DNA from: Aciduliprofundum boonei T469
GTDB taxonomy: Archaea; Thermoplasmatota; Thermoplasmata; Thermoplasmatales; Aciduliprofundaceae
Direction: 5' to 3'
Assembly: GCF_000025665.1 (NCBI RefSeq)
Contig: NC_013926.1
Span: forward strand, 1 to 32,000
Length of the DNA stretch: 32,000 nt
The translations under genes were made by a program, and so were the position numbers. The notes below the pieces were generated by a model that saw only the letters and a program-made list of their open reading frames with translations, was not told where the DNA came from and searched no databases. This document shows, one piece after another, positions 1 through 19,109 of this stretch; position 1 is the stretch's first letter; each line of letters starts with the position of its first letter.

Positions 1-52
1 AAAAATCTTTTTTAACTTTCATATCATACCTACCTTTACTTCGGGTGGAATC

Positions 53-1300
53 ATGGGACAGGTGAACTTGTTTGAGAAGCACATGCGCAAACTCTCGCTT
101 TTTAAAGGAAACAGAGAGGCCCTATATCCAGATTACTTACCAGATTCTCTGCCACACAGGGAGAAGGAGATAGATAGATTAGCTGAAATTTTAGTAACCG
201 CGTTAGAGGGAAATAAACCTTCAAATGTGCTAATATTTGGAAAGACGGGGACTGGAAAGACGGCAGTAGTCAGATATGTGGGAAGGGAACTAAAAAGGGC
301 TGAAAAAGTGTATGCAAAGAAGAAAATTGAGTACATATATTTGAATTGTGAAACTGTTGATACCCCGTATTCCATCCTCCAAAATCTTGGAAACTATTTC
401 ATAGAAGATTGGGATGAGAAAATACCATTCACAGGTTGGCCCATGGACAAGGTTTTCTCCACGGTTAAGGAAAGAATTGATGAATGGAATGGGATAGTTG
501 TTTTAGTTCTTGATGAAATTGATAAGCTCGTGGCAAAGAGCGGAGATGATATCCTCTACCAACTTCTTCTTTTGGATTCTGAGATGAAAAATTCGAGGCT
601 AAGCGTTATAGGTATATCAAATGAGCTCAAATTCACCGATTTGCTAGACCCAAGGGTTAAAAGCAGGCTGGGGCAGGAAAAACTAATTTTCTCTCCCTAC
701 AATGCATTTCAACTCCAAGATATATTGTCTGAGAGAGTAAAAATAGCAGTTAAGGACGATGCTGTGAGCGATGAGGTAATAAGCATATGTGCAGCCATAG
801 CAGCGCAAGAGCACGGAGATGCAAGGAGAGCCATAGATTTACTGAGAATATCCATTGAGATTGCCGAGAGAGAAGGCGCTGAAAAAGTCACGGATAGACA
901 TGTCTATTTAGCAAAGAACAAGATTGAGATGGATTGCATAACTGAAGCCATAAAAACTCTCCCTCTTCATTCAAAGATCGTGCTTTTAGGAATTGCATTA
1001 AATGAGGAGGCAGGAAACAACACACTTACTACCGGGGAACTATATCACATTTATAGTACCCTTTCTAAGAGAATCGGAGCATCTCCCCTAACACAAAGAA
1101 GGGTATCTGATTTAATCTCAGACATGGACATGCTTGGATTGATTTCGACCAAGGTAAAATCATTTGGGAGATATGGAAGAACAAAGATAATAGAGTTAGC
1201 ACTTCCTGTGCAGGAAGTAAAGAAAATAATTTTTGAAGATGAATTTTTAGCTGAACTCAATGAGGTAAAATTGGCGTCTCAGAAAAAATTATTCTTTTAA
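53..1300 (+). CDS. cdc6: Orc1/Cdc6 replication initiator (AAA+ ATPase with C-terminal winged helix)
   Basis: 415-aa ORF. Walker A GKTGTGKT, Walker B VLVLDEID, an Orc1/Cdc6-style N-terminus (YLPDSLPHREKEIDRL) and a C-terminal wH-like segment (RRVSDLISDMDMLGLI). Confidence 0.93.
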   Translation: MGQVNLFEKHMRKLSLFKGNREALYPDYLPDSLPHREKEIDRLAEILVTALEGNKPSNVLIFGKTGTGKTAVVRYVGRELKRAEKVYAKKKIEYIYLNCETVDTPYSILQNLGNYFIEDWDEKIPFTGWPMDKVFSTVKERIDEWNGIVVLVLDEIDKLVAKSGDDILYQLLLLDSEMKNSRLSVIGISNELKFTDLLDPRVKSRLGQEKLIFSPYNAFQLQDILSERVKIAVKDDAVSDEVISICAAIAAQEHGDARRAIDLLRISIEIAEREGAEKVTDRHVYLAKNKIEMDCITEAIKTLPLHSKIVLLGIALNEEAGNNTLTTGELYHIYSTLSKRIGASPLTQRRVSDLISDMDMLGLISTKVKSFGRYGRTKIIELALPVQEVKKIIFEDEFLAELNEVKLASQKKLFF

Positions 1301-2116
1301 CCTCCTTAATTTTCTTTTTATTTCTTCTCTATGAGCAATTGCATAGTCAATACCCACAGAGCCTGCTACAAGTACAATAAGAGAAATGGCAAGATTCACA
1401 TTGGTGTTTGATGGTATCTCTTCGGTATTCGTATGTGTCAAATATAGTTTTATAGCGCCGAACCATGGAATTTCTCCCCTAGCTACACCCACAATCATAT
1501 TATAATTTACAAGATAGGGGCATATGGGAATGAAGCCGGAGGTACTCTGATCATAAGCACTAGGCCCAAATCTTGCCAGATTATGATCTCCCATTGTAAT
1601 AAACCCTTCCTTTCCAACAACATTGGGATTTAATTTCTGCAAATTTATGATTATTTTTTTGTGTTCATAACCCACATTATCAATTGTGATATAATCCTTA
1701 GTCACATGCAGCCAAGAAGGATAATTTCCATTTTCAAATCCTCTTATTTTCCATTCTTTTCCATTCCAATGCAGGTAAACTATGGCACGATGTATTATCA
1801 ACTCACCATGACATTTGTAAATTATAACATCTCCATAATCTCCATATGTTTCATATCCTTTCATTCTTCCTTCAACATAGCTTACAACATCATCTGCAGA
1901 ATAAACTTTCTTAACTATAACTATGTCTCCCGTATCTATAGTTCCTATATGAGATAAATCTCCATGCTGCATACTTCCAGATTCTATTACCACTATAGGA
2001 GGCCAAGTTTGAGCATAAGCATATAGAGAGAGAAAGATAACGAGAACTATTATGATTGAGATAACAACATCTTTAAATGTATCACGCCATAGATTTCCCT
2101 TATTATTTTCTTCCAT
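1289..2116 (-). CDS. Type I signal peptidase, archaeal/eukaryal Sec11-like (S26B), with N- and C-terminal TM helices
   Basis: ORF 1289..2182. Ser box ESGSMQHGD, His box IIHRAIV, Asp box ITMGDHN...YD. I place the start at ATG 2116 (MEENNKGN..) because the longer 5' extension would run through the TATA box of the divergent aIF5A gene. It overlaps cdc6 convergently by 12 nt. Confidence 0.8.
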   Translation of the reverse strand: MEENNKGNLWRDTFKDVVISIIIVLVIFLSLYAYAQTWPPIVVIESGSMQHGDLSHIGTIDTGDIVIVKKVYSADDVVSYVEGRMKGYETYGDYGDVIIYKCHGELIIHRAIVYLHWNGKEWKIRGFENGNYPSWLHVTKDYITIDNVGYEHKKIIINLQKLNPNVVGKEGFITMGDHNLARFGPSAYDQSTSGFIPICPYLVNYNMIVGVARGEIPWFGAIKLYLTHTNTEEIPSNTNVNLAISLIVLVAGSVGIDYAIAHREEIKRKLRRLKE

Positions 2117-2162
2117 TTTAGTGGATATTGGACACAAAAATAAAAATCTTTTGAAAGAAAAT

Positions 2163-2172
2163 CTATATAAAG
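2163..2172 (+). promoter_or_regulatory. TATA-box candidate for aIF5A (ctatataaag)
   Basis: AT-rich TATA-like element about 35 nt upstream of ATG 2204, with a weak SD (gaggg) at 2192-2196. Position and sequence only. Confidence 0.4.
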
Positions 2173-2203
2173 CGAATCCCATTTACCCTACGAGGGATTA
2201 AAA

Positions 2204-2599
2204 ATGTCATGGAGAGATGTTGAGGTTCGAGAACTCAAGGTTGGAGGATATATGGTTGTTGATGATGAGCCATGCAAGATAGTTGAAATGACCACAAGCA
2301 AGCCAGGGAAGCATGGAGAAGCAAAGGCAAGAATAGTCGCCATAGGGGTCTTTGATGGCCAGAAAAGAAGCTTGGTGTATCCTGTGAAGCACAAGGTAAA
2401 AGTTCCAATAATTGAAAAGAGAGATGCTCAGGTTCTCGCAGTCATGGGTGATGAAGTCCAATTGATGGACTCTGAAACCTTTGAGACATTTGAGTTACCT
2501 ATCCCCGAGGAGCTAAAAGACCAAATATCTCCGGGAAAGAATGTACAGTACTGGGAAGCATTGGGAAAAAGGAAGATAATGAAAGTTATGGGCGAATAA
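2204..2599 (+). CDS. eif5a: Translation initiation/elongation factor aIF5A
   Basis: 131-aa ORF. Hypusine-loop motif [15 protein letters not shown], with an N-terminal SH3-like half and a C-terminal OB-like half typical of aIF5A/eIF5A. Confidence 0.95.
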
Positions 2600-2601
2600 A
2601 T

Positions 2602-3474
2602 ATGCTTCTGCATTTTGCAGATGCGAATAAGAATTTTAACGAATCTTTTTTCATAATTTTTGGCGTTCCGTTTGATGGAACATCCTCTTATAGGCATGGT
2701 TCAAAATTTGCACCTGACGAGATAAGAAAAGCATCATATAACCTTGAAAGTTATGTTATGGAGCATAAAATTTCTCTCTCAGAACTCCCAATTCATGATA
2801 TGGGCGATATTGGAACCCTTGATGAATTTGGAAATGTAGAGGATGTAATCGATACAGTTTATTCCACAATGCAATCCATACTACCCAATAAATTTCCAAT
2901 AATGATTGGTGGGGAGCATTCAATAACCATCGGTGCTGCAAAGGCTCTAAAAAAATTAAATGCAGGTATAATATTCATAGACGCCCATGGAGATTTTAGA
3001 GATGAATATTTAGGAAATAAGTACAGCCACGCTTGCACTGCCAGAAGGGCATATGATATCTTAAATGGCAAAATAATTTCAATAGGAGTGAGATCAGCAT
3101 CTCAAGAAGAAGTTGAAGATGCAAAGGATTTGAATTACGAATGGATTGATTCATATGAATTTCAAAGATTGGGATGGAAAAGAACAATAAAAAAAGCCAT
3201 GGAAATATTGGATGTCCAGAAAGTATATTTATCTATCGATATAGATGGTATTGACCCAGCCTATGCTCCCGGAACAGGCACTCCTGAGTTCTTTGGATTA
3301 AGCCCTATGGATGTAAAAAACATCATAAATTTTCTCGCTCCCAATTTAATAGGTGCCGATATAACAGAAGTGTGTCCACCATATGATAATGGAAATACAT
3401 CCATATTGGCTGCACGCTTGGTTCAAGAAATTATAGCGGCAAAGTGGAATACTATGGAAGATAAGTTTAAATAA
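2602..3474 (+). CDS. speB: Agmatinase / ureohydrolase family (arginase fold); may act on agmatine or N1-aminopropylagmatine
   Basis: 290-aa ORF. Mn-binding ureohydrolase motifs IMIGGEHSIT, FIDAHGDFRDEY, LSIDIDGIDPAYAPGTGTPE. It starts 2 nt after the aIF5A stop. Confidence 0.9.
   Translation: MLLHFADANKNFNESFFIIFGVPFDGTSSYRHGSKFAPDEIRKASYNLESYVMEHKISLSELPIHDMGDIGTLDEFGNVEDVIDTVYSTMQSILPNKFPIMIGGEHSITIGAAKALKKLNAGIIFIDAHGDFRDEYLGNKYSHACTARRAYDILNGKIISIGVRSASQEEVEDAKDLNYEWIDSYEFQRLGWKRTIKKAMEILDVQKVYLSIDIDGIDPAYAPGTGTPEFFGLSPMDVKNIINFLAPNLIGADITEVCPPYDNGNTSILAARLVQEIIAAKWNTMEDKFK
3463..3474 (+). promoter_or_regulatory. Possible TATA-like element (aagtttaaataa) for the pilus operon, inside the 3' end of speB
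   Basis: Lies about 40 nt upstream of ATG 3509, and only a 34-nt intergenic gap is available. Co-transcription with speB is an equally good alternative. Confidence 0.25.
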
Positions 3475-3508
3475 CATTTCTCCCCTATGGTTAAGTGGTG
3501 TTGGGTTT

Positions 3509-4411
3509 ATGAGAAGAATCCGAAGGAAGGAGGAAGGTATAGCTTCAACGGTAGGCACTATATTCGCCCTTATGATATTCACATCCTTGCTCTCAATGTT
3601 TATGGTTCAGGTCGTGCCTGTACAAATTAAAGAGAACGAGGCAGAGCATGATATGGAAGTTCTATCTCAGCTCTCTCAACTTAGAAGTGTAATTGATATA
3701 CTCACTCTAACTAAAAATACAAATTACACAGCCTATGTTCCTATTAAACTCGGAGCTCCAGGGGTACCTGTGGTCGCTTCTCCCACATATGGGCAATTAT
3801 CAGTTTATCCTGCAGGACTTAATTCCACATACAATATGACAGTGAGTTTTGTAGACAACTATTCCAACTATGTTAGCTTGCATTCTCAGGGAAGTATACA
3901 ATTCACTGCCCCCAATAGATACTATGTACCTGAAACATTCTCCTATGAAAACGGAGCTATAATTAGGTATAATTTCTATGCAAAAAATGCGATTATGCCT
4001 ATTAAGCCAAATATGAAGTTCCAAAATGTGAGCGGCCATGTTAATGTGAGTATGACTATGGAAAACATATATGGACCCCCAGTCACAGTTACTGGAGTGG
4101 AAACAAGGAGTTTAGGAGTAACATTGCAAGGAGTTTACACCCAAACATACTTTCTAGGTGGAAAAGAACTAAATCTGACTATTAACGATACTTACTATTA
4201 TGGACTCATGCCATTGAATTTCACAAAGTATTGGATTCAAGAAATATCGAATATGCTCAATGAAAGCGGGATTTTATATACCGACAATCCCTCCTCGCTT
4301 CAAAACCCAAATTATCCATATTATACAATATCAGGCAATAAAATACAACTTTACAATGTTTGGAATGTTGTAGTTAGGATGGTGTATATTGAGGTAGAGG
4401 TGAGCTCCTAA
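3509..4411 (+). CDS. Type IV pilin-like protein (archaeal Pilin_N / class III signal peptide), probably heavily N-glycosylated
   Basis: 300-aa ORF. The N-terminus MRRIRRKEEG|IASTVGTIFALMIFTSLL fits the archaeal pilin pattern (acidic/basic leader, G/A, then [VI]-x-x-x-[VI]-G plus a hydrophobic helix). About ten N-x-S/T sequons. The stop overlaps the next ATG (TAATG). Confidence 0.65.
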   Translation: MRRIRRKEEGIASTVGTIFALMIFTSLLSMFMVQVVPVQIKENEAEHDMEVLSQLSQLRSVIDILTLTKNTNYTAYVPIKLGAPGVPVVASPTYGQLSVYPAGLNSTYNMTVSFVDNYSNYVSLHSQGSIQFTAPNRYYVPETFSYENGAIIRYNFYAKNAIMPIKPNMKFQNVSGHVNVSMTMENIYGPPVTVTGVETRSLGVTLQGVYTQTYFLGGKELNLTINDTYYYGLMPLNFTKYWIQEISNMLNESGILYTDNPSSLQNPNYPYYTISGNKIQLYNVWNVVVRMVYIEVEVSS

Positions 4412-6048
4412 TGATGCCCAAAGGAATAAAGAAATTGAATTTCTCAATATTTCAAGGCATCGTAAAACCCCAAGTTAAAATAAAAATCCCAAAATTCGAA
4501 GTCGGGAGAAGCAGTGATATCACTCCAATTCCCCCACTTGAAAAGGAAAATTACGAAACTGTTGAAGTTTATCCAGTTTATCCCCCTTATGTTTACACTC
4601 GAATAATATATGATAGGGAGGAGTATGAGTATATTTATGATTTAATAGAGCCACCTCTCACAGATGAAGAGCAGAGATTACTCGATGAGATAAATGATAC
4701 CCTTGATAGAACTCTAAAATATGAATGGGAGATTATGACCAACAAAGACAGAGAGCAATATTTAAGGGAGAGTGTAGACAGTTTCTTAAGGAGTAGAGAT
4801 ATAAAGATAGATAAAATATCAAAGGAGAGAATACTCTATTATGTTGTTAGGGACCATGTGGGTTATCAGAAAATCGAGGGATTAATTAGGGATGAATACA
4901 TAGAGGACATATCATGCGATGGTGTTGGCGTTCCCATTTATGTCTTTCATAAAAAATATCAGTCCATTAAAACTAAATTGGTATACAAGGATGATGATGA
5001 GCTTAACTCTTTCATAGTGTATATCTCCCAGAAATGTGGAAAGCAGATATCTGTAGCAGAGCCCATATTGGATGGAACAACTGCCGAGGGGCATAGAGTA
5101 CAAGCCACCTATGGAAGAGAAGTCACTACTAGAGGGGGAACTTTTACTATCAGAAGATTCAAAGAGAAGCCATTTACTCCCACAGAGTTAGTTTTATTTG
5201 GCACTGCATCCCCAGAGATTGTTGCATATCTTTGGTTGATGGTTGAGCATGGGGAGAGTGCCATAGTCATCGGAGGTCCAGCTTGTGGAAAAACCTCCAC
5301 GCTTAATGCATTCTCTATGTTCATACCTCCAACCGCGAAGATTGTTAGTATAGAAGATACAAGAGAAATAAACCTTCCACATCAAAACTGGATTCCAGGT
5401 ACAACCAGGAGTGGTATAGGTGAGGCATCCATAACAGGTAAATCTGCAGGAGAAATTGATATGTACGATTTAGTTAGGGCTGCATTGAGGCAGAGACCTA
5501 ACTACATAATTGTGGGAGAGGTTAGAGGTAAAGAAACATATACAATGTTTCAAGCAATGGCCACAGGACATACCACATACTCAACGATGCATGCAGATTC
5601 TATTGTTTCTATGATTCATAGACTTGAAAATCCACCAATAAACTGCCCGAGAATTCTTATGACCGCATTAAACAATGTCATTATTCAGAAAATAGTGAGA
5701 ACGAAGGAAGGAATCACTAGGAGGATTACACAGCTCGTGGAGAATGTTGGGTTTGAGCCAGAAACAAATGAGTTAATAACAAATGTGGTTTTTGAATGGG
5801 ATCAGGCCAGGGATACGCACAAATTCAAAGGGCATAGTTATCTATTTGACAAGATAATGACTATGAAGAACATGACCCATAACGAAATGATGGAGGAATT
5901 TGAAAGAAGAGTTGATATAGTAAAATATTGGGTTAAAAAAGAGATTTTAGATTTCAGAGATATCTGGAAAACAATAGCCAATTATTACAAGGATCCAATA
6001 GGAACTGCAGAAGAAGCACGTCTCAAACTTGGGGAGGTGAAAAGTTGA
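4411..6048 (+). CDS. Type IV filament assembly ATPase, FlaI/EpdL/TadA-like (ATPase-1)
   Basis: 545-aa ORF. FlaI-like N-domain (YIYDLIEPPLTDEE), Walker A GGPACGKTS, Asp box SIEDTREINLP, Walker B IIVGEVRG, His box ATGHTTYSTMHA. Confidence 0.9.
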   Translation: MMPKGIKKLNFSIFQGIVKPQVKIKIPKFEVGRSSDITPIPPLEKENYETVEVYPVYPPYVYTRIIYDREEYEYIYDLIEPPLTDEEQRLLDEINDTLDRTLKYEWEIMTNKDREQYLRESVDSFLRSRDIKIDKISKERILYYVVRDHVGYQKIEGLIRDEYIEDISCDGVGVPIYVFHKKYQSIKTKLVYKDDDELNSFIVYISQKCGKQISVAEPILDGTTAEGHRVQATYGREVTTRGGTFTIRRFKEKPFTPTELVLFGTASPEIVAYLWLMVEHGESAIVIGGPACGKTSTLNAFSMFIPPTAKIVSIEDTREINLPHQNWIPGTTRSGIGEASITGKSAGEIDMYDLVRAALRQRPNYIIVGEVRGKETYTMFQAMATGHTTYSTMHADSIVSMIHRLENPPINCPRILMTALNNVIIQKIVRTKEGITRRITQLVENVGFEPETNELITNVVFEWDQARDTHKFKGHSYLFDKIMTMKNMTHNEMMEEFERRVDIVKYWVKKEILDFRDIWKTIANYYKDPIGTAEEARLKLGEVKS

Positions 6049-7043
6049 AACTCTTTGCCAAATTATTTGCAAAATACGCACCCACTCCTCCAAACAGACC
6101 CTATAAAGTGAAATTACCTAAGGGCTCATTGCCCACATACATAAATTTAGATCCATACCATAAATTGGCTTGGAAGCTCATGGGAAAAATGGCAGAAAAA
6201 TCTGTGAAAAAGAAGAAATTCTCCAAACTCGAAATGGATTTACTTAAAGCGCATATTCTTTTAAGGCCTCAGGAATACCTTGCATATGTATATTTTACCA
6301 CACTCTTAGTTGGAGTCATAGGCATAGTTATGGCAGCTATGCTCGTTCTTATGGGGCTATCCCTCGGAAATAAAATGATTACTATTTTGTTTCTCTTAAT
6401 AGGAATATTTATGATGGTAATTATTCCAATAATGACATACTTCTCCCTGATCTCATCCCCTGCATCTAAAGCCAAGAAAAGGGCCAAAGATATTGATACT
6501 CATCTTCCAACAGCTGTGAATTTCATTGCCGCATTATCATCGGCGGATGTTACCGTGGCCTCAATTTTCAAAGAGCTATCAACAAGAAAAGAGTATGGAG
6601 AGATAGCAAAAGAGGCAGAATGGATTACAAGAGATACAGAGCTTCTGGGAAAGGATATACTCACGGCAATTGAAGAAGCGTCTAGGAGGAGTCCTTCAGT
6701 GAAATGGCAAGAATTTCTGCAAGGAGTTATAACAACTGCAACTTCAGGAGGTAGGCTAAAGCCATTCTTTATGTCCAAATCAGAAGAGTACGAGAAAGAA
6801 AAAAGATTGATGTTAAAGAAAAATATGGAGAGCTTGGGATTATTTGCAGAAATTTATGTAACTGTTGGTGTTGCATTCCCCCTATTCTTAGTTGTTATAA
6901 TAGCAATAATGGCACTTATAAATAAGAATAGTGCAGCAAGTACGGTTATGCTTTTAGAAATAATCGTTGTAGTTATGATTCCTGTTCTAATCTTCGTATT
7001 TAGCTACTTCATATACAGCACGAGTAAGGAGGTGGCGGAATGA
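6045..7043 (+). CDS. Type IV filament platform protein, single T2SSF domain (TadB/EpdJ-like half of FlaJ/PilC)
   Basis: 332-aa ORF. TTG start at 6045 sits behind GGAGGTGA (6033-6040) and overlaps the upstream stop (TTGA). One cytoplasmic T2SSF-like domain (HLPTAVNFIAALSSADVT...GKDILTAIEEASRR) is flanked by TM helices. Confidence 0.8.
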   Translation: MKLFAKLFAKYAPTPPNRPYKVKLPKGSLPTYINLDPYHKLAWKLMGKMAEKSVKKKKFSKLEMDLLKAHILLRPQEYLAYVYFTTLLVGVIGIVMAAMLVLMGLSLGNKMITILFLLIGIFMMVIIPIMTYFSLISSPASKAKKRAKDIDTHLPTAVNFIAALSSADVTVASIFKELSTRKEYGEIAKEAEWITRDTELLGKDILTAIEEASRRSPSVKWQEFLQGVITTATSGGRLKPFFMSKSEEYEKEKRLMLKKNMESLGLFAEIYVTVGVAFPLFLVVIIAIMALINKNSAASTVMLLEIIVVVMIPVLIFVFSYFIYSTSKEVAE

Positions 7044-7912
7044 ACAAGGAAAAACTTATATTTTATGTGTCTGCATTTATAGCTGCAATATTCATAAGTA
7101 TTGGAATAATGCTCTACCTCAAAAAAACTAATATTTTTGGCCTAATCCCCCTTGATTTTATAGTTATAGGTACATCTGCATTCTTATTTGGACCTGGAAT
7201 ATACGATATGCTCCATACAAGGAAAATAAAGAAGATGGAAGAGAGATTTCCGGATTTCCTCAGGGATGTGGCAGAATCCTCAAGATTTGGTATGACCCTT
7301 GCAGACTCCATCGTAGTGGCTTCTTCTGGCAAATATGGGGCCCTTACAGACGAGATAAAGAGAATGGCTTCAAAGATAAGTTGGGGAGTTCCAGTTAAGG
7401 ACGCACTGCTATCATTTAACGAAAGGGTTAAAACTCCACTGATAGACAGAATAACGGCAATAATAATAAAATCAAACGAAGCCGGAGGTAATATTGCAGA
7501 TGTTCTCTCAATGGTTGCAAGAAATGCAAGGGAATCTCAATTAGCTGCTAAAGAGAGAAACATAGAGATGTTTACCTATGGTTTTGTTCTCCTAACTTCA
7601 TTCTTTGTTTTCTTAGCAACTATTATAATTCTAAACAACTCATTTCTACCAGAGATGGGCAAAGCAGGTATGGCTGTAGAGGAGAGCTTTAAAAAGGCAT
7701 CCGTTGCCGGTGCTTTACCCGGAGGGGGTATAGCATACGAATATGTCCCAATAATAACCCTGTTATTTGTAATAGCGACCATAATCCATGGGGTTGGAGA
7801 TGGAATAATGATAGGCATACTCTCAGATGGAAGAGTAAAAAGTGGCTTCGTATGGGCCTTTGTTCTTCTTGCCTCGGGATACTTCATTCTAAGGCTATTG
7901 GGGGCCGTATGA
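7040..7912 (+). CDS. Type IV filament platform protein, single T2SSF domain (TadC/EpdK-like half)
   Basis: 290-aa ORF. ATGA overlap with the upstream gene, SD AAGGAGGTGG (7026-7035). A second single T2SSF-like domain (RFPDFLRDVAESSRFGMTLADSI...GVPVKDALLSF...GGNIADVL) plus TM helices. Confidence 0.8.
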   Translation: MNKEKLIFYVSAFIAAIFISIGIMLYLKKTNIFGLIPLDFIVIGTSAFLFGPGIYDMLHTRKIKKMEERFPDFLRDVAESSRFGMTLADSIVVASSGKYGALTDEIKRMASKISWGVPVKDALLSFNERVKTPLIDRITAIIIKSNEAGGNIADVLSMVARNARESQLAAKERNIEMFTYGFVLLTSFFVFLATIIILNNSFLPEMGKAGMAVEESFKKASVAGALPGGGIAYEYVPIITLLFVIATIIHGVGDGIMIGILSDGRVKSGFVWAFVLLASGYFILRLLGAV

Positions 7913-7922
7913 GGTGATATAG

Positions 7923-9566
7923 ATGGCCATATCAAAAAAGGAGATTCCAACAAAACTAAAAATCGTGAATATGATGAGACCTATAATAAAAAGTGAAAAA
8001 TTAAAGGTTAAAACTCCCAAAAAACATACAGCTCATGGCAGCAACATCACTCCATTACCCGAAATAAAATCTCCAAGTATAAAGGAGATTGAGGTTGATC
8101 CAATAGAGGAGCCATACTCTTATGTTAGAATACTATTTGATGAGGTAACAAGTGAATACATCTATGAGGTGATTGAACCACCCATCACCGATGATGAGAA
8201 AAAGATTCTTGAAAATATAAAATCCAAATTAATTGAAGTGCTTGAATTAAAAGATTTTGAAAATGATGAGGAAAGAAAAGAGTATCTTATGGAAAAAACT
8301 GAGGAAATAATAGAAGAAATGAATACCCCTGTTGACTCCGTGGTTCTTGATAGGCTAAAATACTATGTTTATAGGGATTTCCTTGGATATGGACTGGTCC
8401 AAGTCCCAATGCATGATAGTGAAGTGGAAGACATATCCTGTGATGGTGTGAATATACCAATTTATATCTATCACAGAATGTACGGCTCTATCAGATCAAA
8501 TCTGAAATTTCAAAAAGAGGATGAATTGGACAATTATGTGATATGGATAGTCCAAAAATCAGGAAGACATATATCCATATCAAACCCGATGGTAGATGCC
8601 TCTCTACCAGATGGCTCCAGGTTGCAGGCAACCTTAGGAAAGCATGTCACAAAGAGAGGCTCCTCTTTTACAATAAGAAGATTCAAACCAAATCCATTCA
8701 CTCCCATTGACCTCATAAGATTTAAAACGATGAGTAGGGAAATGATGGCCTACATATGGCTTGCAGTAGAGAACGGGATGAGTATAATTGTATGTGGAGG
8801 CACAGCCAGCGGAAAAACCACCACCCTAAATGCCATTCTTCTTTTCATTCCTCCCAATATGAAAATAGCAAGTATAGAAGATACAAGAGAGTTAAATTTA
8901 CCTCATGAAAACTGGATTCCATCACTAACTAGAGAGGGGTTGGGAGAACCTAATCCGGTAACGGGTAAAAGACCCGGAGAGATAGATATGTTCGATTTGC
9001 TCAAAGCCGCACTTAGGCAGAGACCCCAATACATAATGGTAGGAGAGGTTAGGGGTCCAGAAGCATACACAGTATTCCAAGCTATGGCAACAGGGAAGAC
9101 ATGCTATACGACATTCCATGCTGATGATGTTAAATCAATGGTTCATAGATTTGAGAACGCACCCATAAATTTACCCAGAGCTTTGATAACTGCACTAGAT
9201 ATCGTAATTCTACAAGCTCAAGTGAAAGTAGGCACTGCAATGACCAGGAGAGTTAAATCAATAACCGAAATAGTTGGACTAGACCCAGAAACAAACGAAA
9301 TAATAACAAATAATGCCTATACATGGAATCCTGCAGATGATACCTTTAATTACAGCGGACATAGTTATATTTACGAGAAAATCTCTGCCATAAAAGGGTG
9401 GAGTCAGAGGAGAATGGAGTTGGAAGTTAAGAGAAGAGAGAGAATTTTAGAGTATATGGAAAAACTTGGAGTTAGATATTACAGAGATGTTGCAAGGATT
9501 GTAGCTGCATATTACAAAAAACCAGAAGAAGTATTAAAAAGAGTAGAAGAAGTATTATCCAGCTAA
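7923..9566 (+). CDS. Second FlaI/EpdL/TadA-like ATPase (ATPase-2), paralogue of 4411-6048
   Basis: 547-aa ORF. SD GAGGTGAT (7911-7918). FlaI-like N-domain (YIYEVIEPPITDDE), Walker A GGTASGKTT, SIEDTRELNLP, IMVGEVRG. The His box reads ATGKTCYTTFHA, with Lys where ATPase-1 has His. Confidence 0.9.
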   Translation: MAISKKEIPTKLKIVNMMRPIIKSEKLKVKTPKKHTAHGSNITPLPEIKSPSIKEIEVDPIEEPYSYVRILFDEVTSEYIYEVIEPPITDDEKKILENIKSKLIEVLELKDFENDEERKEYLMEKTEEIIEEMNTPVDSVVLDRLKYYVYRDFLGYGLVQVPMHDSEVEDISCDGVNIPIYIYHRMYGSIRSNLKFQKEDELDNYVIWIVQKSGRHISISNPMVDASLPDGSRLQATLGKHVTKRGSSFTIRRFKPNPFTPIDLIRFKTMSREMMAYIWLAVENGMSIIVCGGTASGKTTTLNAILLFIPPNMKIASIEDTRELNLPHENWIPSLTREGLGEPNPVTGKRPGEIDMFDLLKAALRQRPQYIMVGEVRGPEAYTVFQAMATGKTCYTTFHADDVKSMVHRFENAPINLPRALITALDIVILQAQVKVGTAMTRRVKSITEIVGLDPETNEIITNNAYTWNPADDTFNYSGHSYIYEKISAIKGWSQRRMELEVKRRERILEYMEKLGVRYYRDVARIVAAYYKKPEEVLKRVEEVLSS

Positions 9567-9567
9567 T

Positions 9568-12500
9568 TTATTTCTTTTCCTCCTTCTTCACTGCTATAAC
9601 CTTCTTTATTAGCTTTTTCTTTATCACTGGCTTCTCTTCCTTCTTTTCTTCCTTCTTCTCCGAGACTTTTCCTTCTTTCTTTTCCTCTTTCTCCTTTCTC
9701 TTTGCCCATTCTTCCACAGTAACTACCCCTGGCCTCTGCAACCTTTCTAACTCTTCAGGAGGAATCGATGATTCTTTTGATTCTTTCTGCTCTTTCTTAC
9801 CTTCACCTTCTTCCTTCTTTTCCTTCTTCTCTTCCCCAGTTGGCAGAGGAGAGCCGCACACTCTGCAAATCTTAGCACCTTTTGGATTTAATGCACCGCA
9901 AACTGGGCATTTTACAGTATCTCCCTCTATCTTTTCTTCCTGCCTCTTGACCCATTCTAAAAACGATATGAATTCTGGATTGGTCTTCCACCACTTGTAG
10001 AACTCCTCTTCTGTATACTCCTCACCTATGTATTTCTTCGCTTCATCTCTGTATTTACTTAAATATCTATCGTAATTTTCCTTTAGCTTTTCATACTTCT
10101 TGTATTCTGGATCCTCAGGAGGCATGAAGATAGTGCCGCAAACTGGACAGAATTTCGAGTCTTCATCAATCCAAGAGCCACATGTTGGACACTTTACTTT
10201 CTCCTTCTCAAACACAACACCGCAGTATGGACACTTCTCTGCATCAGCGGGCACAAGATGGCCGCAGTTGCCACAGACCATATATTCTGGTGCCTCTTTC
10301 TTGAAAGATATATAGCCGTACAAGAAGAATCCTACGATTGCGCCCACAACAACAATTATTATGATCCAAAGCCAAGGTATAGTATATGGTTTCTCTTGTA
10401 CCGTTATTGTGGTCTGAGGATTATACCTTGTCTCTGTGCCCTCATACGAGAGAGTTAACTGAGGAGTATAAGTACCTTTGGCAGGAACCTTTATGTGGAA
10501 GATTGCAAGACCATAGGCATTTGTCTTCTGCGTATAAGTTCCCAATCCCCCAGTAAGAGTGAGTTGCACAGTCACACCTTTCATATAAACAGTTTTGCCC
10601 TGAGATTGTGTTGCATTAAGATTTATTATCTTCACCACTACAACCAATGTATCTCCAGCGTATATTTTCTCATTGTGCTCAAGAGAATAACTTGTAAACA
10701 TCACTTTCATAGCAGGTAAGAGCACATTAATCTTCTTAACTCCGATATCATCTCCATATATGCTTTCCTCCACTGTCTTATTTGGATTTAACTTCACAAC
10801 TATATTATGTTCTCCTATTCCATTACTTGTGTAATTAAAAATAATGGCCTTATAACTACCCGGAGCCAAGGAGCTTACATTTCCTTTGTATATAACTTTC
10901 CCATTATCCAATACTATGTAATTCAACTTTCCAGGCATACCTCCCAGGTTTCTCGCAATAAAACCAATTTTTATTTTTACTCCTTCTGGAACACTGGACA
11001 CCTTTTTATTTCCTTCTGAAATTGTGAAATCAGTAAGAACAAAATTAACCTTCTCTTTTATTGTTATAGTAGGCGCAGTATGTATGTAAAGGGCATCTTC
11101 CGTAACATCCGATGTAATGTTTAATTGGTAATCTATTTGTATAGACGTTCTACCTTGCAGATATTTCTGATAAAGAGACTTTGGTATAACAAATCCTATT
11201 ACAATTGGAGTGTTTATCTCCACCTTTATTGGATTATGTGGAGTGATGGGGGCAAGCTCAATATTCCACTGGGGTATATAGAGAACCATAGTGACATTAG
11301 CATCAACATTACTATTTAATGTCGCATTAACAATTATATTAGTTCCATTTACATACTCGTTTTGCGCATTTATTTGCACACTGAATGGCTCTGCATACAC
11401 CATAAAATACTCACTCATAATATTATTCGAAGAGTTATAGTCCCCAGAAGCTACAACTTTAACAATCACTTCATATGAACCATCTGTATCTGGCACCATA
11501 GATATGGAGTATGCGGAGATCGATGTAGAGTATTGTATAGTCTTATTTATAAGCAATGTGCCATAGGGATCATATACATTGATATAAACCATGGCAGATG
11601 TTGGCTCTTCTTTACCAAGATTTATCACATTTGCAGCAATCTTCACTGTTTCCCCTACATATAGGGATTGTGGAGAGATATTTAAAGAATTAACCGCTAG
11701 ATTCACATCTTTTTCAACATTAACATAGTGAGACCCAAGATAAAGATTGTTGTTTGCTATATACAAAAGGAGAGTATGAGAACCTACAGAAATGTTCTTA
11801 TTGATATACCACTGGAAAGATATGTAATTATAACCCTCTTTCAAATCTAAGATTGTACTATTTATGATGTTAGAAGTATTATCCAGGTAGAGATTTATTT
11901 TAATGTTATTCCAAGAATAAACGCTATACACTGTTAAGTTAACCCAAATTTTGTGATATCTTAAAGGAGTTCCAACCTGCCAATTACTTGTTCCAATACT
12001 ACCGACATTGATATCTCTATAAATTCTATTGTTTGCTAAGTTGTAATCCCATACCTGTACCACCTGCTCGCTTATGTTATATACTCCATTTGTGCCAAGC
12101 CAACTTCCACCTATCTTATATGTAAAATCTTTTTTACCTTTGCCATTTATATTTCCTAAATCATAAACATTATACAGATTCCCATTGATATATACATACA
12201 ATTTTACATCGTTTGCTAAGTCTTTTCCTAGGTTCTCTACTTGTGTTTTAATCACTATCTCTTTACCTGGTACATAGGGTTGAGCACTTACCACCTCCTC
12301 ATAATTAATATGCATATCTATATCTTTATATCTCGAAAGGGCCACATTAACATTTAGAGTATTATTGCTAGGTAAAAGCCACGGATAGTAGCTAAGTCCT
12401 ATCTGCAAGGTTGAAAATACTTTGGTACTATTTTCGACAGAAAGAGCATAGATACCTAAATACTTACTATTTGGCATCTCGCTCGCATTGATTATATCAG

Positions 12501-14079
12501 AGAGCAAAGGTAGAGTTACATTCCCGTTTACTGTTGTATCATACACATACCCATTAGAAATCTGAACATCACCTAACTTCATACCTGGTATTAAGCGTGT
12601 ATATTGCACATAACTTGAAATAATACCTAATATCTGAGAGGCAATGCTTGGATTACTATTTACATCTACGGGATTTGGTTTTGCTTTAACTGTCAGTCCA
12701 TTAATAGGTATTCCACGGAATTGAACATTTACATGTGTGTATCTCAAAATGTATACTTGGGAGTATGAATCTCTAATCAAAAATGCGGTATCATATCTAG
12801 GTTGTGTTCCTGTATCATTTACCGTTAAATTCAAGGCATATATTTTTGAATTATCATTAACAAAAAATGTGTTATGAGTAGTTCCAAGATTCTCCCTTGA
12901 TTGATAGTTTACATCCACATACACATCTCTCATATAGAGGGTTGAACCTATAGAATTGAAAGAGAATTTATTTACCCCATATTTCAGCAGATTCGCTTCG
13001 ATATAAATGTTAATATAAACTTTTGAGATAGTTAAAGTACCATTAGTTGTATTTGTAGCATATAACTTTATATCTCCATTCAAGAGTTTTTGATAAAATT
13101 GGTTAGGTGTCATCTCATACGGATAAAAAGGAACATTTTCCTTAATCATTCCTGTTCCCTTTGTTCCTGGAAACGATATATTGAGTAACTGCGTTCCATT
13201 ATAGACCATTATAAAATTGGATGATGAAGGATCATAATCACTGGTATTAGAATAAACTATTCCCACTTCAATGTCTTTAAGCATAACATAATTCCAATAA
13301 TCTGAATATTTATCAATAGGACTCTTCAAGAAATGATTAAATGTAACTCCAGAGGAGACAGTAACTGTATACCTATATGTATCATTCACATAACCTACAA
13401 GACCATTTCCCCCACTTTCGTTTGTAAACATATTTGTAAACCTAGTATTCATAATGTACGCAAGAGAGTTGTAAAAATAAGGTGTTGGGCCATAGTTGGG
13501 AGGGGCAGGATAATCTGCAGGATTCTTTACCATTTTTCCAAAAATCGTGTTTTCGATAATTACATTACCATGCTTGTCAGTAACATTGAACCATCCAGGA
13601 TACAAAAGTCTGCTATTTATTATCTCAACTTTGGCAGTACTGGGACCTTTTATGATAAAATTAAATGGATAATAGGGTTTTATAAGACCATGAGATATTG
13701 TAAAAGTAACATTATAAAAATACAAACCACCTTCTACAGTCAAAGAATATCTATGATCAATGTCCGAAAGAAAATAAAGAGTTACATTTTCAACAATCAG
13801 CTTTCCTGTAGGGGTTACTACCACATTAGCATCAAATCCATACCTTCCACCTCCGCCAACAGTTGTTCTATTTATCACAAATGTATTTGTAATATAAACT
13901 GTGTTTCCCGTAGTGGATCCAGTGGGAGAAGTTGCCATATTATTTATATTCCCCTCACCTACGACAGAGCTCTTAGAATTAGCACCATAGGCATTAGAAT
14001 TAGCCACCAGATAACCAAATCCCCCTAAAATCATCATCAATATAATCAAAATACTCATAAGCACTACCGATTTTTTCAT
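9568..14079 (-). CDS. Giant type I membrane/surface protein: signal peptide, beta-helix-like region, CARDB-like Ig modules, TM, then a cytoplasmic tail with three zinc ribbons and a K/E-rich end
   Basis: 1503-aa ORF with SD AAGGAGGTG (14086-14094, minus strand). N-terminal MKKSVVLMSILIILMMILGGFGYLVA. CARDB-like segments (VENLGKDLANDVKLYVYINGN, VINLGKEEPTSAMVYINVYD, ARNLGGMPGKLNYIVLDNGKVIY..NPNKTVEESIYGDD). TM WLWIIIIVVVGAIVGFFLYGYISF (nt 10303-10374). CxxC..CxxC pairs at about 10135-10278 and 9853-9912. The gene call is confident; the function is unknown. Confidence 0.85.
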   Translation of the reverse strand: MKKSVVLMSILIILMMILGGFGYLVANSNAYGANSKSSVVGEGNINNMATSPTGSTTGNTVYITNTFVINRTTVGGGGRYGFDANVVVTPTGKLIVENVTLYFLSDIDHRYSLTVEGGLYFYNVTFTISHGLIKPYYPFNFIIKGPSTAKVEIINSRLLYPGWFNVTDKHGNVIIENTIFGKMVKNPADYPAPPNYGPTPYFYNSLAYIMNTRFTNMFTNESGGNGLVGYVNDTYRYTVTVSSGVTFNHFLKSPIDKYSDYWNYVMLKDIEVGIVYSNTSDYDPSSSNFIMVYNGTQLLNISFPGTKGTGMIKENVPFYPYEMTPNQFYQKLLNGDIKLYATNTTNGTLTISKVYINIYIEANLLKYGVNKFSFNSIGSTLYMRDVYVDVNYQSRENLGTTHNTFFVNDNSKIYALNLTVNDTGTQPRYDTAFLIRDSYSQVYILRYTHVNVQFRGIPINGLTVKAKPNPVDVNSNPSIASQILGIISSYVQYTRLIPGMKLGDVQISNGYVYDTTVNGNVTLPLLSDIINASEMPNSKYLGIYALSVENSTKVFSTLQIGLSYYPWLLPSNNTLNVNVALSRYKDIDMHINYEEVVSAQPYVPGKEIVIKTQVENLGKDLANDVKLYVYINGNLYNVYDLGNINGKGKKDFTYKIGGSWLGTNGVYNISEQVVQVWDYNLANNRIYRDINVGSIGTSNWQVGTPLRYHKIWVNLTVYSVYSWNNIKINLYLDNTSNIINSTILDLKEGYNYISFQWYINKNISVGSHTLLLYIANNNLYLGSHYVNVEKDVNLAVNSLNISPQSLYVGETVKIAANVINLGKEEPTSAMVYINVYDPYGTLLINKTIQYSTSISAYSISMVPDTDGSYEVIVKVVASGDYNSSNNIMSEYFMVYAEPFSVQINAQNEYVNGTNIIVNATLNSNVDANVTMVLYIPQWNIELAPITPHNPIKVEINTPIVIGFVIPKSLYQKYLQGRTSIQIDYQLNITSDVTEDALYIHTAPTITIKEKVNFVLTDFTISEGNKKVSSVPEGVKIKIGFIARNLGGMPGKLNYIVLDNGKVIYKGNVSSLAPGSYKAIIFNYTSNGIGEHNIVVKLNPNKTVEESIYGDDIGVKKINVLLPAMKVMFTSYSLEHNEKIYAGDTLVVVVKIINLNATQSQGKTVYMKGVTVQLTLTGGLGTYTQKTNAYGLAIFHIKVPAKGTYTPQLTLSYEGTETRYNPQTTITVQEKPYTIPWLWIIIIVVVGAIVGFFLYGYISFKKEAPEYMVCGNCGHLVPADAEKCPYCGVVFEKEKVKCPTCGSWIDEDSKFCPVCGTIFMPPEDPEYKKYEKLKENYDRYLSKYRDEAKKYIGEEYTEEEFYKWWKTNPEFISFLEWVKRQEEKIEGDTVKCPVCGALNPKGAKICRVCGSPLPTGEEKKEKKEEGEGKKEQKESKESSIPPEELERLQRPGVVTVEEWAKRKEKEEKKEGKVSEKKEEKKEEKPVIKKKLIKKVIAVKKEEKK

Positions 14080-14131
14080 TTGCGCACCTCCTTAAACCCA
14101 GATAACATTGATTTAGTTATAGATACCAACC

Positions 14132-14139
14132 TATTTATA
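14132..14139 (-). promoter_or_regulatory. TATA-box candidate (tataaata on the minus strand) for the 1503-aa gene
   Basis: About 55 nt upstream of ATG 14079, compatible with a short SD-containing leader. Sequence and position only. Confidence 0.35.
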
Positions 14140-14197
14140 CCTTACCTTCTTGGTGCCTCCACTTTACTAAGGTGCTCCATATGCATCAAAAATAAAT

Positions 14198-14237
14198 CTT
14201 AAATACCCAAAAAATAGTAAGGCGTTAGCCTTAAATA
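14198..14237 (+). promoter_or_regulatory. Two tandem TATA-like boxes (cttaaata at 14198-14205 and 14230-14237), candidate 23S rRNA promoters
   Basis: An identical octamer repeated 32 nt apart in the AT-rich region 90-130 nt upstream of the processing stem. Tandem rRNA promoters are common in archaea. Confidence 0.4.
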
Positions 14238-14324
14238 TGAGTTCACTATACATCTCCTTGCGCTTTTGGTATGCACTCGATAACGCGGTTATCGGGGAAG
14301 GGCTTAGATCCTCAGGATCAATGA

Positions 14325-14351
14325 GGCCAATCATACGCACTCCGGCATAAT

Positions 14352-14366
<15 letters not shown>
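14325..14366 (+). other. 5' half of the pre-23S processing stem with bulge-helix-bulge (BHB) motif
   Basis: 14325-14343 is the perfect reverse complement of 17313-17331 (19 bp). 14352-14366 pairs with 17290-17304 (15 bp, one G-U). Between them, gcat (14345-14348) pairs with atgc (17305-17308), flanked by 3-nt bulges aat (14349-14351) and tac (17309-17311). Confidence 0.8.
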
Positions 14367-17289
<2,923 letters not shown>

Positions 17290-17304
<15 letters not shown>

Positions 17305-17331
17305 ATGCTACAGGAGTGCGTATGATTGGCC
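17290..17331 (+). other. 3' half of the pre-23S processing stem / BHB motif
   Basis: Complement of 14325-14366, as described for the 5' half. Confidence 0.8.
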
Positions 17332-17369
17332 ATTCAAAAATATTTTATTTGGCCTTTCATTCTTCATTT

Positions 17370-18362
17370 GTGCCCTATGTAATCAAGGTTAAGAAGGAAA
17401 ATGCGGAAAAAATGAGAAAATGGCTTTTTAAAAAAAAGATTTTGAGTGATGAATGGAAAATAGTACAGGAAGGAGATTATATTTATTTTCCACTAAGAGA
17501 GAAAATTGATGGCTCCGTATGGATCGATTTACCAAAGAGAGATAGAAAAAAATCCCCTTATGAGAGAATTGTTAATAAGATAGGCAAAGAGATTGAAATT
17601 CCAAACCATTGGGAGAAAATAGGCGATACTGTGATTCTTCAAGAATTCAAAGATTGGAAAAAATACGGGTATGAAGTGGGTAAGGCATTTGCCGAGGTGT
17701 TAAAAGCAAAAACCGTTGTGATATATCATGGAACTTATGGAGAATTTAGAGAGCCAAGAATTACAAAAATATTTGGAGAGAGCACAGAAACTATTCATAT
17801 TGAAAATGGAATTAAGTACAAACTGGATATTGCAAAAATAATGTTTTCATCAGGAAATGTAGATGAAAGAATAAGAATGGGAAAAATTGATGCAAGGGAC
17901 GAAATAATAGTGGACCTCTTTGCAGGTATCGGATACTTTACTTTACCCTTAGCAAAGTCCGGAAGAGCAAAAAAGATATATGCATGTGAGAAAAATCCAA
18001 TTGCATACAGATACCTTTTAGAAAATATAGAATTGAACCAACTTGAAAATATAATTCCACTATTTGGAGACAACAGAAACATCTCTCCATTAAAAATAGC
18101 CGACAGAGTTATTATGGGATATATCCACACCGAACCTTTTCTTGGCATAGGATTCAAAGCATTAAAAAAAGAAGGGGGAATAATACATTATCACAACACC
18201 ATAACAACAGAGGAGAGAGATTGGAAAATGGAGAATGAGTTAAAATTCTATGGAGAAAAGTATGGTTTTAAAATAAGTATTATATCCAAAAGGGTTGTTA
18301 AATCTTACGCACCCCATATCTGGCATGTTGTAATAGATGCAAGAGCCACTCCAAAAAATTAA
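17370..18362 (+). CDS. Trm5/Taw2-family (COG2520-type) SAM-dependent tRNA position-37 modification enzyme
   Basis: Class I MTase core VDLFAGIGYFTLPLA, then ACEKNP and ADRVIMGY..HYHNT, with an N-terminal domain like archaeal Trm5/Taw2 (PYVIKVKKENAEKMRKWL..GDYIYFPL). The ORF-track start 17259 lies inside the 23S gene. I prefer GTG 17370, about 25 nt after an AT-rich TATA-like stretch; ATG 17412 is the alternative. MGY instead of an NLP-type loop hints at Taw2 rather than Trm5, but I cannot decide. Confidence 0.8.
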   Translation: MPYVIKVKKENAEKMRKWLFKKKILSDEWKIVQEGDYIYFPLREKIDGSVWIDLPKRDRKKSPYERIVNKIGKEIEIPNHWEKIGDTVILQEFKDWKKYGYEVGKAFAEVLKAKTVVIYHGTYGEFREPRITKIFGESTETIHIENGIKYKLDIAKIMFSSGNVDERIRMGKIDARDEIIVDLFAGIGYFTLPLAKSGRAKKIYACEKNPIAYRYLLENIELNQLENIIPLFGDNRNISPLKIADRVIMGYIHTEPFLGIGFKALKKEGGIIHYHNTITTEERDWKMENELKFYGEKYGFKISIISKRVVKSYAPHIWHVVIDARATPKN

Positions 18363-18386: not shown

Positions 18387-19109
18387 ATGGCCGATATACC
18401 ATTTTACATTGCTACCATTGTTGGATTCGTTCCATCATTCGCTCTCTTGTACATTTATTGGGGAAAGTTAGAAGGTTTATTCCATGAGAAAAAAATGTTT
18501 TGGAACTACTTTATAGGATGGATAATGGGGGTCATAATCGCTATATTTTTCCTCATCTCTAAATATTCTGTTGGAGGTTATTTAGATCTTTCCATAATAT
18601 TCGTAATATTTTTCGCCCTATTCACCGAGAGTTTCAAATTTATATACTTGAATTTTCCAAAAAAAAGAGGGAACTATGAACTTCCGTATTTCGGTTTTGC
18701 CCTGGGTCTAGGAATAAGTGCGATATGGGCTGTGGCTATCGTGTATCAATATTTAAAATACGAGCAACTAAACGAGATAAATTATGTCATCGCCATTGTG
18801 TCCCTATTTCTATTCTCAATGGGGCTATCAGCCATTCACGCATCGACAGGTGCCATTATAGGGTATGGGATATACAAAGGTGAAAAAGAGAGATTTTTGC
18901 TCAAAGCTTTTGCCCTCCAAATTATATTCAATTTCACATTACTGCCTTTAATATGGAACCTATATCCTCTTTATTATTTCTTCGGCATATTCATAGGCAT
19001 GCCTTATCTTTACTCTAAAGTTTATAAAGGAGTGTTGATTAATGTAATACCAAAGGAGGTTAAAAGAAAATGGCTAAAGGAAAGGAGAGAAAGAGGGGAA
19101 AGATTGTAG
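18387..19109 (+). CDS. Polytopic membrane protein (about 7 TM), unknown function; weak resemblance to PrsW-type intramembrane proteases
   Basis: 240-aa ORF made of hydrophobic helices with a basic C-terminal tail (KRKWLKERRERGERL). FTESFKF and SAIHASTGAIIGYG loosely recall PrsW EExxK / HxxxD motifs, but only partially. Confidence 0.55.
   Translation: MADIPFYIATIVGFVPSFALLYIYWGKLEGLFHEKKMFWNYFIGWIMGVIIAIFFLISKYSVGGYLDLSIIFVIFFALFTESFKFIYLNFPKKRGNYELPYFGFALGLGISAIWAVAIVYQYLKYEQLNEINYVIAIVSLFLFSMGLSAIHASTGAIIGYGIYKGEKERFLLKAFALQIIFNFTLLPLIWNLYPLYYFFGIFIGMPYLYSKVYKGVLINVIPKEVKRKWLKERRERGERL

Follow-up and report, generated by a model that had tools for sequence, protein, structure and literature searches.

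A conserved cassette of two paralogous ATPases and a split platform in Thermoplasmatota, probably part of a type IV pilus assembly machinery, at a locus of Aciduliprofundum boonei

Within bases 1-32000 of the Aciduliprofundum boonei T469 chromosome (the window), five chained plus-strand open reading frames (ORFs) at 3509-9566 encode a pilin-like protein, two paralogous secretion ATPases (ATPase-1 and ATPase-2) and, between the ATPase genes, the N-half and the C-half of a split platform protein. The order ATPase-1, N-half, C-half, ATPase-2 (the cassette) was found in 60 of 63 Thermoplasmatota loci. The five genes probably specify the membrane-proximal machinery that assembles an adhesive type IV pilus of euryarchaeal clade 2, with the architecture of the CdiP machinery of Cuniculiplasma divulgatum. 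That they encode type IV pilus machinery of the clade 2/CdiP kind is very likely and that both ATPases are required on one platform is somewhat favoured, while each particular division of labour between the two ATPases is doubtful. The A. boonei locus and its architecture are already described; the additions made here are the phylum-wide conservation of the cassette and data on its constraint.

The ATPases, the split platform and related systems

The genes were identified as type IV pilus machinery because of their Pfam and NCBIfam domains, because afGspE is the best relative of the ATPases, and because of published arCOG and clade 2 assignments. Pfam detected a T2SSE domain in each ATPase and PilB3_C also in ATPase-2. 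The best solved relative of both was Archaeoglobus afGspE (PDB 2OAP; 392 bits for ATPase-1 and 468 bits for ATPase-2), and lower scores were obtained in the PDB comparison for FlaI (304 and 320 bits) and CpaF (134 and 149 bits). Neither protein reached the cut-off of the FlaI/ArlI equivalog NF058587 (408 and 448 bits versus 550), of TadA TIGR03819 (133 and 143 bits versus 373) or of PilT TIGR01420 (44 and 46 bits versus 319), and the PilB cut-off was likewise not reached. Both A. boonei ATPases are labelled Clade_2 (euryarchaeal clade 2) in Table S2 of PMC4858521, and the Methanococcus maripaludis Epd ATPase is placed in sister clade 1 in the tree of that paper. A preliminary description of the locus had called the ATPases FlaI-type, a label that proved only loosely descriptive, since they are of the afGspE type, in clade 2, and miss the FlaI cut-off. 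Its wider label, Epd/Tad-like, holds for the split platform but not for the ATPases, which belong to clade 2 and not to Epd clade 1 or CpaF/TadA. We agree that this is not an archaellum operon: both ATPases stay below the NF058587 cut-off, and Pfam scans of the large ORFs of the window (at least 100 aa, or 125 aa over 1-14100) detected no KaiC/FlaH (ArlH), archaellin, FlaC-G (ArlF/G/C-E) or A24 peptidase.

The two ATPases shared 47% identity in an alignment of 546 columns that had 9 gap positions, and their catalytic core aligned with one 1-residue gap, in agreement with the earlier statement that they are colinear, about half identical and true paralogues. Each platform gene carried one T2SSF domain in Pfam. 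When compared with NCBIfam models, the N-half covered positions 8-241 of 555 of ArlJ and 29-242 of 484 of UpsF, as well as the N half of BasF; the C-half covered 270-535 of 555 of ArlJ and 267-437 of 484 of UpsF, as well as the C half of BasF. No similarity between the two halves was detectable. Because the genes match the N and C halves separately and lack mutual similarity, the platform is a true split and not a duplication, as had been proposed for a two-domain platform divided between genes with one T2SSF domain each. Both platform genes are assigned to arCOG01808 (Makarova Table S4).

The arrangement, presented earlier as a possible novelty, was already catalogued and has been studied experimentally. 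Makarova, Koonin and Albers 2016 (PMC4858521) list the exact A. boonei locus gene by gene and remark on its two distinct ATPases. In Cuniculiplasma divulgatum the ATPases CSP5_0712 and CSP5_0715 flank the TadC homologues CSP5_0713-14 (Golyshina et al. 2016, PMC5155288), an arrangement that the authors liken to that of both Aciduliprofundum genomes. The same Cuniculiplasma genes were named CdiPE1, CdiPFa, CdiPFb and CdiPE2 in an ISME J 2025 study (PMC12448462), which reports RNA-seq data, aligns CdiPFa with the N-terminal and CdiPFb with the C-terminal half of AapF, solves the C. divulgatum pilus by electron cryomicroscopy (cryo-EM), ties the operon to that pilus and calls the need for a second ATPase enigmatic. 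In the same study C. divulgatum adhered, and live imaging showed no twitching. The study also describes this operon, with its two ATPases, as unique among those of archaeal pili and archaella, a label that is contradicted by the two 2016 papers and by the 60 of 63 Thermoplasmatota loci. The A. boonei N-half was colinear with the CdiPFa fragment given in the supplement of PMC12448462 (40% identity over 47 aa, E 1e-7), and the C-half matched the corresponding fragment of the CdiPFb C-terminus with 31% identity over 89 columns, the DGR..SG motif included (E 2e-8).

The gene order ATPase, N-half, C-half, ATPase, the arCOGs 01817 and 01808 and the phylum are common to the CdiP machinery and the A. 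boonei locus, and the CdiP major pilin is encoded elsewhere. The arCOG02911 gene directly upstream and the convergent CARDB/zinc-ribbon gene downstream, in contrast, are features of A. boonei. This organism reportedly also has an S-layer and an archaellum, and Cuniculiplasma neither. With the other euryarchaeal clade 2 pili (A. fulgidus afGspE/AF0659; Haloferax volcanii PilB3-PilC3 and PilB4) the A. boonei locus shares the ATPase clade, the signature pilin arCOG02911 and the TadC arCOG. However, the clade 2 loci of A. fulgidus and Haloferax hold one ATPase instead of two, and the TadC of A. fulgidus is a single unsplit protein of 614 aa; A. sulfaticallidus has both a short and a long TadC beside a single ATPase. 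Epd (EpdJ/EpdK) and Tad (TadB/TadC) systems have two platform genes with a single T2SSF domain each, as in A. boonei, and Epd and Tad/Flp likewise lack a dedicated PilT-type ATPase. They differ from A. boonei in their single ATPase, which is of clade 1 or CpaF, and in their short Flp-type pilins. Tad/Flp also has TadZ and a secretin; no TadZ/CpaE, secretin or short Flp-type pilin was found among the large window ORFs scanned. For A. boonei, Makarova Table S3 (PMC4858521) lists one further secretion ATPase, outside clade 2, which lends some support to the reported archaellum.

Conservation and constraint of the ATPase pair

The conservation survey was an ATPase alignment scan with one genome per GTDB species, from which 80 Thermoplasmatota loci with an ATPase-1 orthologue were retained, the best 80 of at least 592 candidates. 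Neighbours were mapped by tblastn with the A. boonei proteins, and the cassette was scored in those 63 loci whose sequence extended at least 5.3 kb beyond the ATPase-1 start. The 60 loci that contained it came from DHVE2, Methanomassiliicoccales, many Thermoplasmata and the halo-alkaliphilic Saliniplasma and Haladaptatiplasma, and in none of them had one ATPase copy been lost from the cassette in a lineage-specific manner. Median intergenic distances in the relatives were -11, +1 and +3 nt. The platform halves were separate ORFs in all 73 loci in which both were visible; a fused platform in some lineages was accordingly rejected as a candidate arrangement (0 of 73). Within this survey, the paired-ATPase cassette occurred only in Thermoplasmatota. 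A complete archaeal cassette (60-63% identity) was also present in DAIDCO010000078.1, titled "bacterium isolate clean3188", whose bacterial taxonomic label is probably wrong.

ATPase-1 (82 sequences) and ATPase-2 (61 sequences) were reciprocally monophyletic, and therefore the duplication is older than the radiation of the surveyed lineages. Identity between ATPase-1 and ATPase-2 of the same locus was 44-56%, compared with ∼64% between orthologues and the window proteins. In our neighbour-joining tree, which included one Archaeoglobus sequence, the paralogues were sisters to the exclusion of afGspE in 100 of 100 bootstraps. In the published FastTree (PMC4858521), however, ATPase-2 clusters with the afGspE group at a support of 0.882, and ATPase-1 joins A. 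sulfaticallidus and a nanoarchaeote at 0.778; the two trees thus differ on the age of the duplication beyond the phylum.

The catalytic residues of ATPase-1 (Walker A K294/T295, Asp box E315/D316, Walker B E370 and His box H394) were 100% conserved in 82 orthologues, as were the corresponding motifs of ATPase-2 (Walker A/B, Asp box, His box) in 61. Fifteen sites were fixed differently between the two groups, six of them clustered at residues 199-241. At these 15 sites afGspE/FlaI had the state of ATPase-2 in seven and that of ATPase-1 in three, and group-specific conserved positions numbered 29 in ATPase-2 versus 13 in ATPase-1. On these comparisons, ATPase-2 looks like the conservative copy and ATPase-1 like the derived one.

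The ratio of nonsynonymous to synonymous substitution rates (dN/dS) could be used only against the near-identical metagenome-assembled genome L084, as DHVE2 relatives and strain MAR08-339 were saturated (pS 0.76-0.86). Against L084 it was 0.023 for ATPase-1, 0.037 for ATPase-2, 0.039 for the platform N-half and 0.027 for the C-half. The intact catalytic motifs and the strong purifying selection on both proteins indicate that neither ATPase is decaying, and the proposal that ATPase-2 might be evolving neutrally in relatives, raised in the preliminary description as a way in which the pair could fail, is not borne out by its dN/dS of 0.037 and its invariant motifs. The synonymous divergence from L084 (dS) was itself uneven, being 1.0 for ATPase-1, 0.78 for the platform C-half, 0.54 for ATPase-2, 0.27 for the pilin-like gene and 0.2 for the platform N-half, and 0.12-0.14 for Cdc6, aIF5A and agmatinase (window 53-9566 against L084 5645-15156). 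This pattern looks like mosaic recombination inside the pilus locus.

Gene junctions, pilin-like protein and neighbouring genes

The coordinates of the five genes (Table 1) match the RefSeq annotation of NC_013926 as given in Makarova 2016 Table S4, and the five chained ORFs, with their lengths, starts, overlaps and 10-nt gap, were found just as they had first been described. The pilin-like gene and ATPase-1 are joined by a TAATG overlap preceded by GAGGTAGAGGTGAG, ATPase-1 and the platform N-half by a TTGA overlap preceded by GGAGGTGA, and the two platform halves by an ATGA overlap preceded by AAGGAGGTG; a 10-nt gap with GAGGTGAT inside separates the platform C-half from ATPase-2. A Shine-Dalgarno-like, GGAGGTG-like sequence lies ahead of all four junctions. 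The TATA-box-like element TTTAAATA before the pilin-like gene is a putative operon promoter. A second TATA-consensus match, TTTATATA at 4273-4280 (+), lies within the pilin-like gene, 131 nt before ATPase-1, and could be a candidate internal promoter that uncouples expression of the pilin from that of the machinery. Matches to this consensus were at chance level in the window as a whole (10 found versus 9.6 expected); six of the ten lay roughly 5-50 nt upstream of gene starts, five of these at 25-50 nt. The same scan gave no match within 4411-9566, so no canonical promoter is visible just before ATPase-2. Bacterial promoter and terminator scans of the window were at or below chance, with models that are not applicable to archaea. 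ATPase-2 ends within a T-rich stretch, 1 nt from the stop of the convergent gene. The overlaps and the 10-nt gap with their Shine-Dalgarno-like sequences, the short gaps in relatives and the lack of a TATA consensus inside 4411-9566 all argue for co-expression of the cassette genes.

Table 1. Genes and promoter-like element of the A. boonei locus (positions in the window)
Feature	Position	Strand	Description
Archaeal TATA-box-like element TTTAAATA	3466..3473	+	Overlaps agmatinase stop codon; 36 nt before pilin-like gene ATG
Pilin-like protein gene	3509..4411	+	300 aa; arCOG02911; class III signal peptide
ATPase-1	4411..6048	+	545 aa; clade 2 secretion ATPase, T2SSE; apparently the more derived paralogue
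Platform N-half	6045..7043	+	332 aa; TTG start; TadC/PilC-like, one T2SSF domain
Platform C-half	7040..7912	+	290 aa; TadC/PilC-like, one T2SSF domain
ATPase-2	7923..9566	+	547 aa; clade 2 secretion ATPase, T2SSE and PilB3_C; apparently the more ancestral-like paralogue
Convergent CARDB surface protein gene	9568..14079	-	1503 aa; Pfam CARDB and Zn-ribbon matches

The N-terminus of the pilin-like protein, RKEEG/IASTVGTIFALMIF, is a class III signal peptide that was conserved in 25 homologues (EEG/IAS followed by a hydrophobic helix), and a FlaFind-like motif with a hydrophobic stretch was present in 62 of 76 orthologues. No other protein of the window had a convincing class III signal peptide. 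An AF2 model (pLDDT 87.8) predicted a 60-residue N-terminal helix (8-68) followed by an all-beta domain. The gene is assigned to arCOG02911, described as the "signature minor pilin" of clade 2 systems (PMC4858521). In the surveyed loci it was located upstream of the cassette in 60 cases and downstream in 8, and its dN/dS against L084 was 0.096. About 16 orthologues (P0136-P0151) were ∼500 aa long, with an inserted LamG/Laminin_G_3 domain; such insertions are consistent with a variable adhesin-like tip or minor pilin. Small PilA-like pilins were sought in the window and none was found. A protein with seven transmembrane (TM) helices, encoded at 18387-19109, was considered as a prepilin peptidase and rejected, since it lacks a GxGD motif and matches no Pfam family even at E=10. 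Its gene overlaps by 40 nt that of a transglutaminase-core protein (both genes within 18387-20200, +), whose N-terminus, VGKA/IAISVFLLLLY, weakly resembles a class III signal or a signal anchor.

The product of the gene convergent to ATPase-2 combines a signal peptide and CARDB domains with a single TM helix, three zinc ribbons on the cytoplasmic side and a tail rich in Lys and Glu. A homologous convergent gene followed ATPase-2 in 28 of the 48 Thermoplasmatota loci with enough DNA, and one was seen at 13554-17788 of locus L001, 15158-19657 of L084 and 9588-14750 of L085. Makarova Table S4 lists the gene as arCOG01917, without a pilus-associated mark (PMC4858521). On the basis of synteny, the CARDB protein may be an undescribed accessory or anchor component of the pilus machinery.

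The window opens with Cdc6/Orc1, and aIF5A and agmatinase directly precede the A. boonei cassette (2204-3474). In a Methanomassiliicoccales relative (L001) a KaiC-like ATPase gene (PF06745, DUF7090, DUF7504; 4098-6038) lies just upstream of the cassette and a deoxyhypusine synthase gene (2397-3458) nearby; the presence of hypusine-pathway genes near the cassette in both genomes could be residual synteny or coincidence. Further along the window a complete archaeal 23S rRNA gene (14356-17300, +) stands alone, with a GC content of 0.51-0.63 against a background of ∼0.37, and no 16S or 5S gene accompanies it within the 32 kb. GC-rich rRNA, encoded by genes that are not linked, is in keeping with a thermophilic genome related to Thermoplasmata.

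Proposed working of the machinery and alternative readings

In the working that we propose, a prepilin peptidase encoded elsewhere would cleave the class III signal peptide off the pilins, the arCOG02911 protein would act as a minor, priming or tip pilin, and the major PilA-like pilin would be encoded outside the window. The N-half and C-half proteins would form one heterodimeric PilC/TadC-like platform, beneath which hexameric ATPases would dock, their ATP hydrolysis lifting membrane pilins into the growing filament. Both ATPases would act, non-redundantly, on this same split platform. ATPase-2, the more ancestor-like copy, would be the canonical assembly motor, and ATPase-1 a sub- or neo-functionalised partner, either sharing a mixed hexamer or forming a homohexamer of its own that performs a distinct step such as priming, pilin substrate switching or disassembly. 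Non-redundancy of the ATPases is indicated by the occurrence of the cassette in 60 of 63 loci, the reciprocal monophyly of the two groups, the invariant motifs and the low dN/dS.

Several observations weigh against this proposal. The survey was seeded on ATPase-1 orthologues, and loci with ATPase-2 only lie outside its sample. In the three exceptions to the cassette (L002, L003 and L009) the ATPase-1 orthologue stands alone, with neither platform nor ATPase-2 within 8-10 kb; its occurrence in three lineages means that ATPase-1 can persist, and perhaps work, apart from the cassette. The pilin-like protein gave no Pfam match and no significant match to solved pilins in a PDB fold comparison, and neither the major pilin of the pilus nor a prepilin peptidase was found within the window. 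As for the comparison with CdiP, the view that the ATPases are orthologous to CdiPE1 and CdiPE2 is taken from the literature, and the adhesive, non-twitching pilus was seen in C. divulgatum, while the A. boonei system is known from its genes alone. The lone orthologues (L002 8001-9650, L003 8001-9650 and L009 10001-11599) were 65-66% identical, had intact motifs and were located among metabolic genes; the assembly collection records the protein of L002 and L003 (P0091) in 56 index blocks. These orthologues suggest that ATPase-1 can function outside the cassette, or alongside partners whose genes lie elsewhere.

One alternative is that ATPase-1 and ATPase-2 alternate in one obligate mixed ring (e.g. 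3+3) beneath the heterodimeric platform, which we judge unlikely. The two ATPases nearly always co-occur, are translationally chained and have equal domain layout and length, and the platform itself is a two-gene hetero-complex in 73 of 73 loci. Crystals of afGspE are said to have contained alternating open and closed subunits. Hetero-hexamers have moreover been proposed for type IV filament ATPases (PMC6711533). However, the orphan ATPase-1 genes, with their intact motifs, argue that ATPase-1 can form a functional homo-oligomer, and their existence makes an obligate mixed ring less likely.

Distinctly improbable, in our assessment, is an extension/retraction pair in which ATPase-2 (probably) polymerises the pilus and ATPase-1 is a disassembly motor, a convergent archaeal analogue of PilT. 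Two conserved, catalytically intact and diverged paralogues in one operon would suit such a pair, and a cluster immediately N-terminal to the ATPase core accounts for six of the 15 diagnostic substitutions. Archaea have no PilT homologues, yet Sulfolobus Aap pili retract (PMC11178785), and the accepted origin of PilB/PilT is duplication followed by sub-functionalisation (PMC6711533). In bacterial type IVa pili PilB and PilT (and PilU) are indeed paralogous hexameric ATPases that arose by duplication and share one platform, a conceptual analogy to the A. boonei pair. In contrast, the A. boonei pair goes back to an independent duplication; neither paralogue matches the PilT family (44-46 bits versus 319), and both are full-length with the N-terminal region that PilT lacks. 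C. divulgatum, with the same operon, adheres without twitching (PMC12448462), and in Tad and Aap systems one ATPase already performs both tasks (PMC6711533, PMC11178785). With no twitching seen in C. divulgatum and no PilT-like features in either paralogue, a retraction motor becomes less likely.

We assign a similarly low probability to the ATPases being interchangeable motors that serve the same platform with different pilin sets or regulation. Makarova 2016 suggests such interchangeable use for paralogous ATPase/TadC modules and cites the locus as a case showing that diverged ATPases can share pilin sets (PMC4858521), pilin genes are scattered in the related Cuniculiplasma genomes (PMC5155288), and the arCOG02911 pilin varies, some orthologues carrying LamG insertions. 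The overlaps and 10-nt spacing without an internal TATA consensus nevertheless favour co-expression, and both copies are kept in 60 of 63 loci with no single-copy loss inside the cassette; this tight coupling and strict co-conservation make simple redundancy or differential regulation less likely. A type II secretion-like pseudopilus or a system for handling surface proteins, in either case at the service of the CARDB/zinc-ribbon protein, could draw on the convergent CARDB-TM-zinc-ribbon gene in 28 of 48 loci, on the single large, atypical pilin-like gene without a structural match to solved pilins and on a signal peptidase I-like gene nearby, but it is highly improbable, given the abundant cryo-EM pilus associated with the homologous operon of C. 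divulgatum (PMC12448462), the adhesive pili made by the clade 2 systems of Haloferax and Halobacterium (PMC4858521) and the ordinary Sec-type signal peptide of the CARDB protein.

Returning to a pilus machinery in which both ATPases serve one split platform, the A. boonei locus itself adds nothing new, and the reason for two ATPases is a question already posed in the literature for Cuniculiplasma. Phylum-wide conservation makes simple redundancy less likely as an answer. It also turns the pair into a strongly constrained trait of the phylum that reaches Methanomassiliicoccales and halo-alkaliphilic lineages and so offers more organisms for experiments. Archaea are regarded as lacking dedicated retraction ATPases, although certain archaeal pili do retract, and two diverged ATPases with intact motifs, kept since the early radiation of the phylum, are a natural test case for division of labour between motors. 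A tentative and, on present evidence, unlikely extension is that the cassette is an obligate two-motor system of single origin at the base of Thermoplasmatota, working as a mixed hexamer or as an assembly/disassembly pair on the heterodimeric platform. If this were true, the obligate pair would be the first dedicated second type IV pilus motor in Archaea, evolved independently of bacterial PilT.

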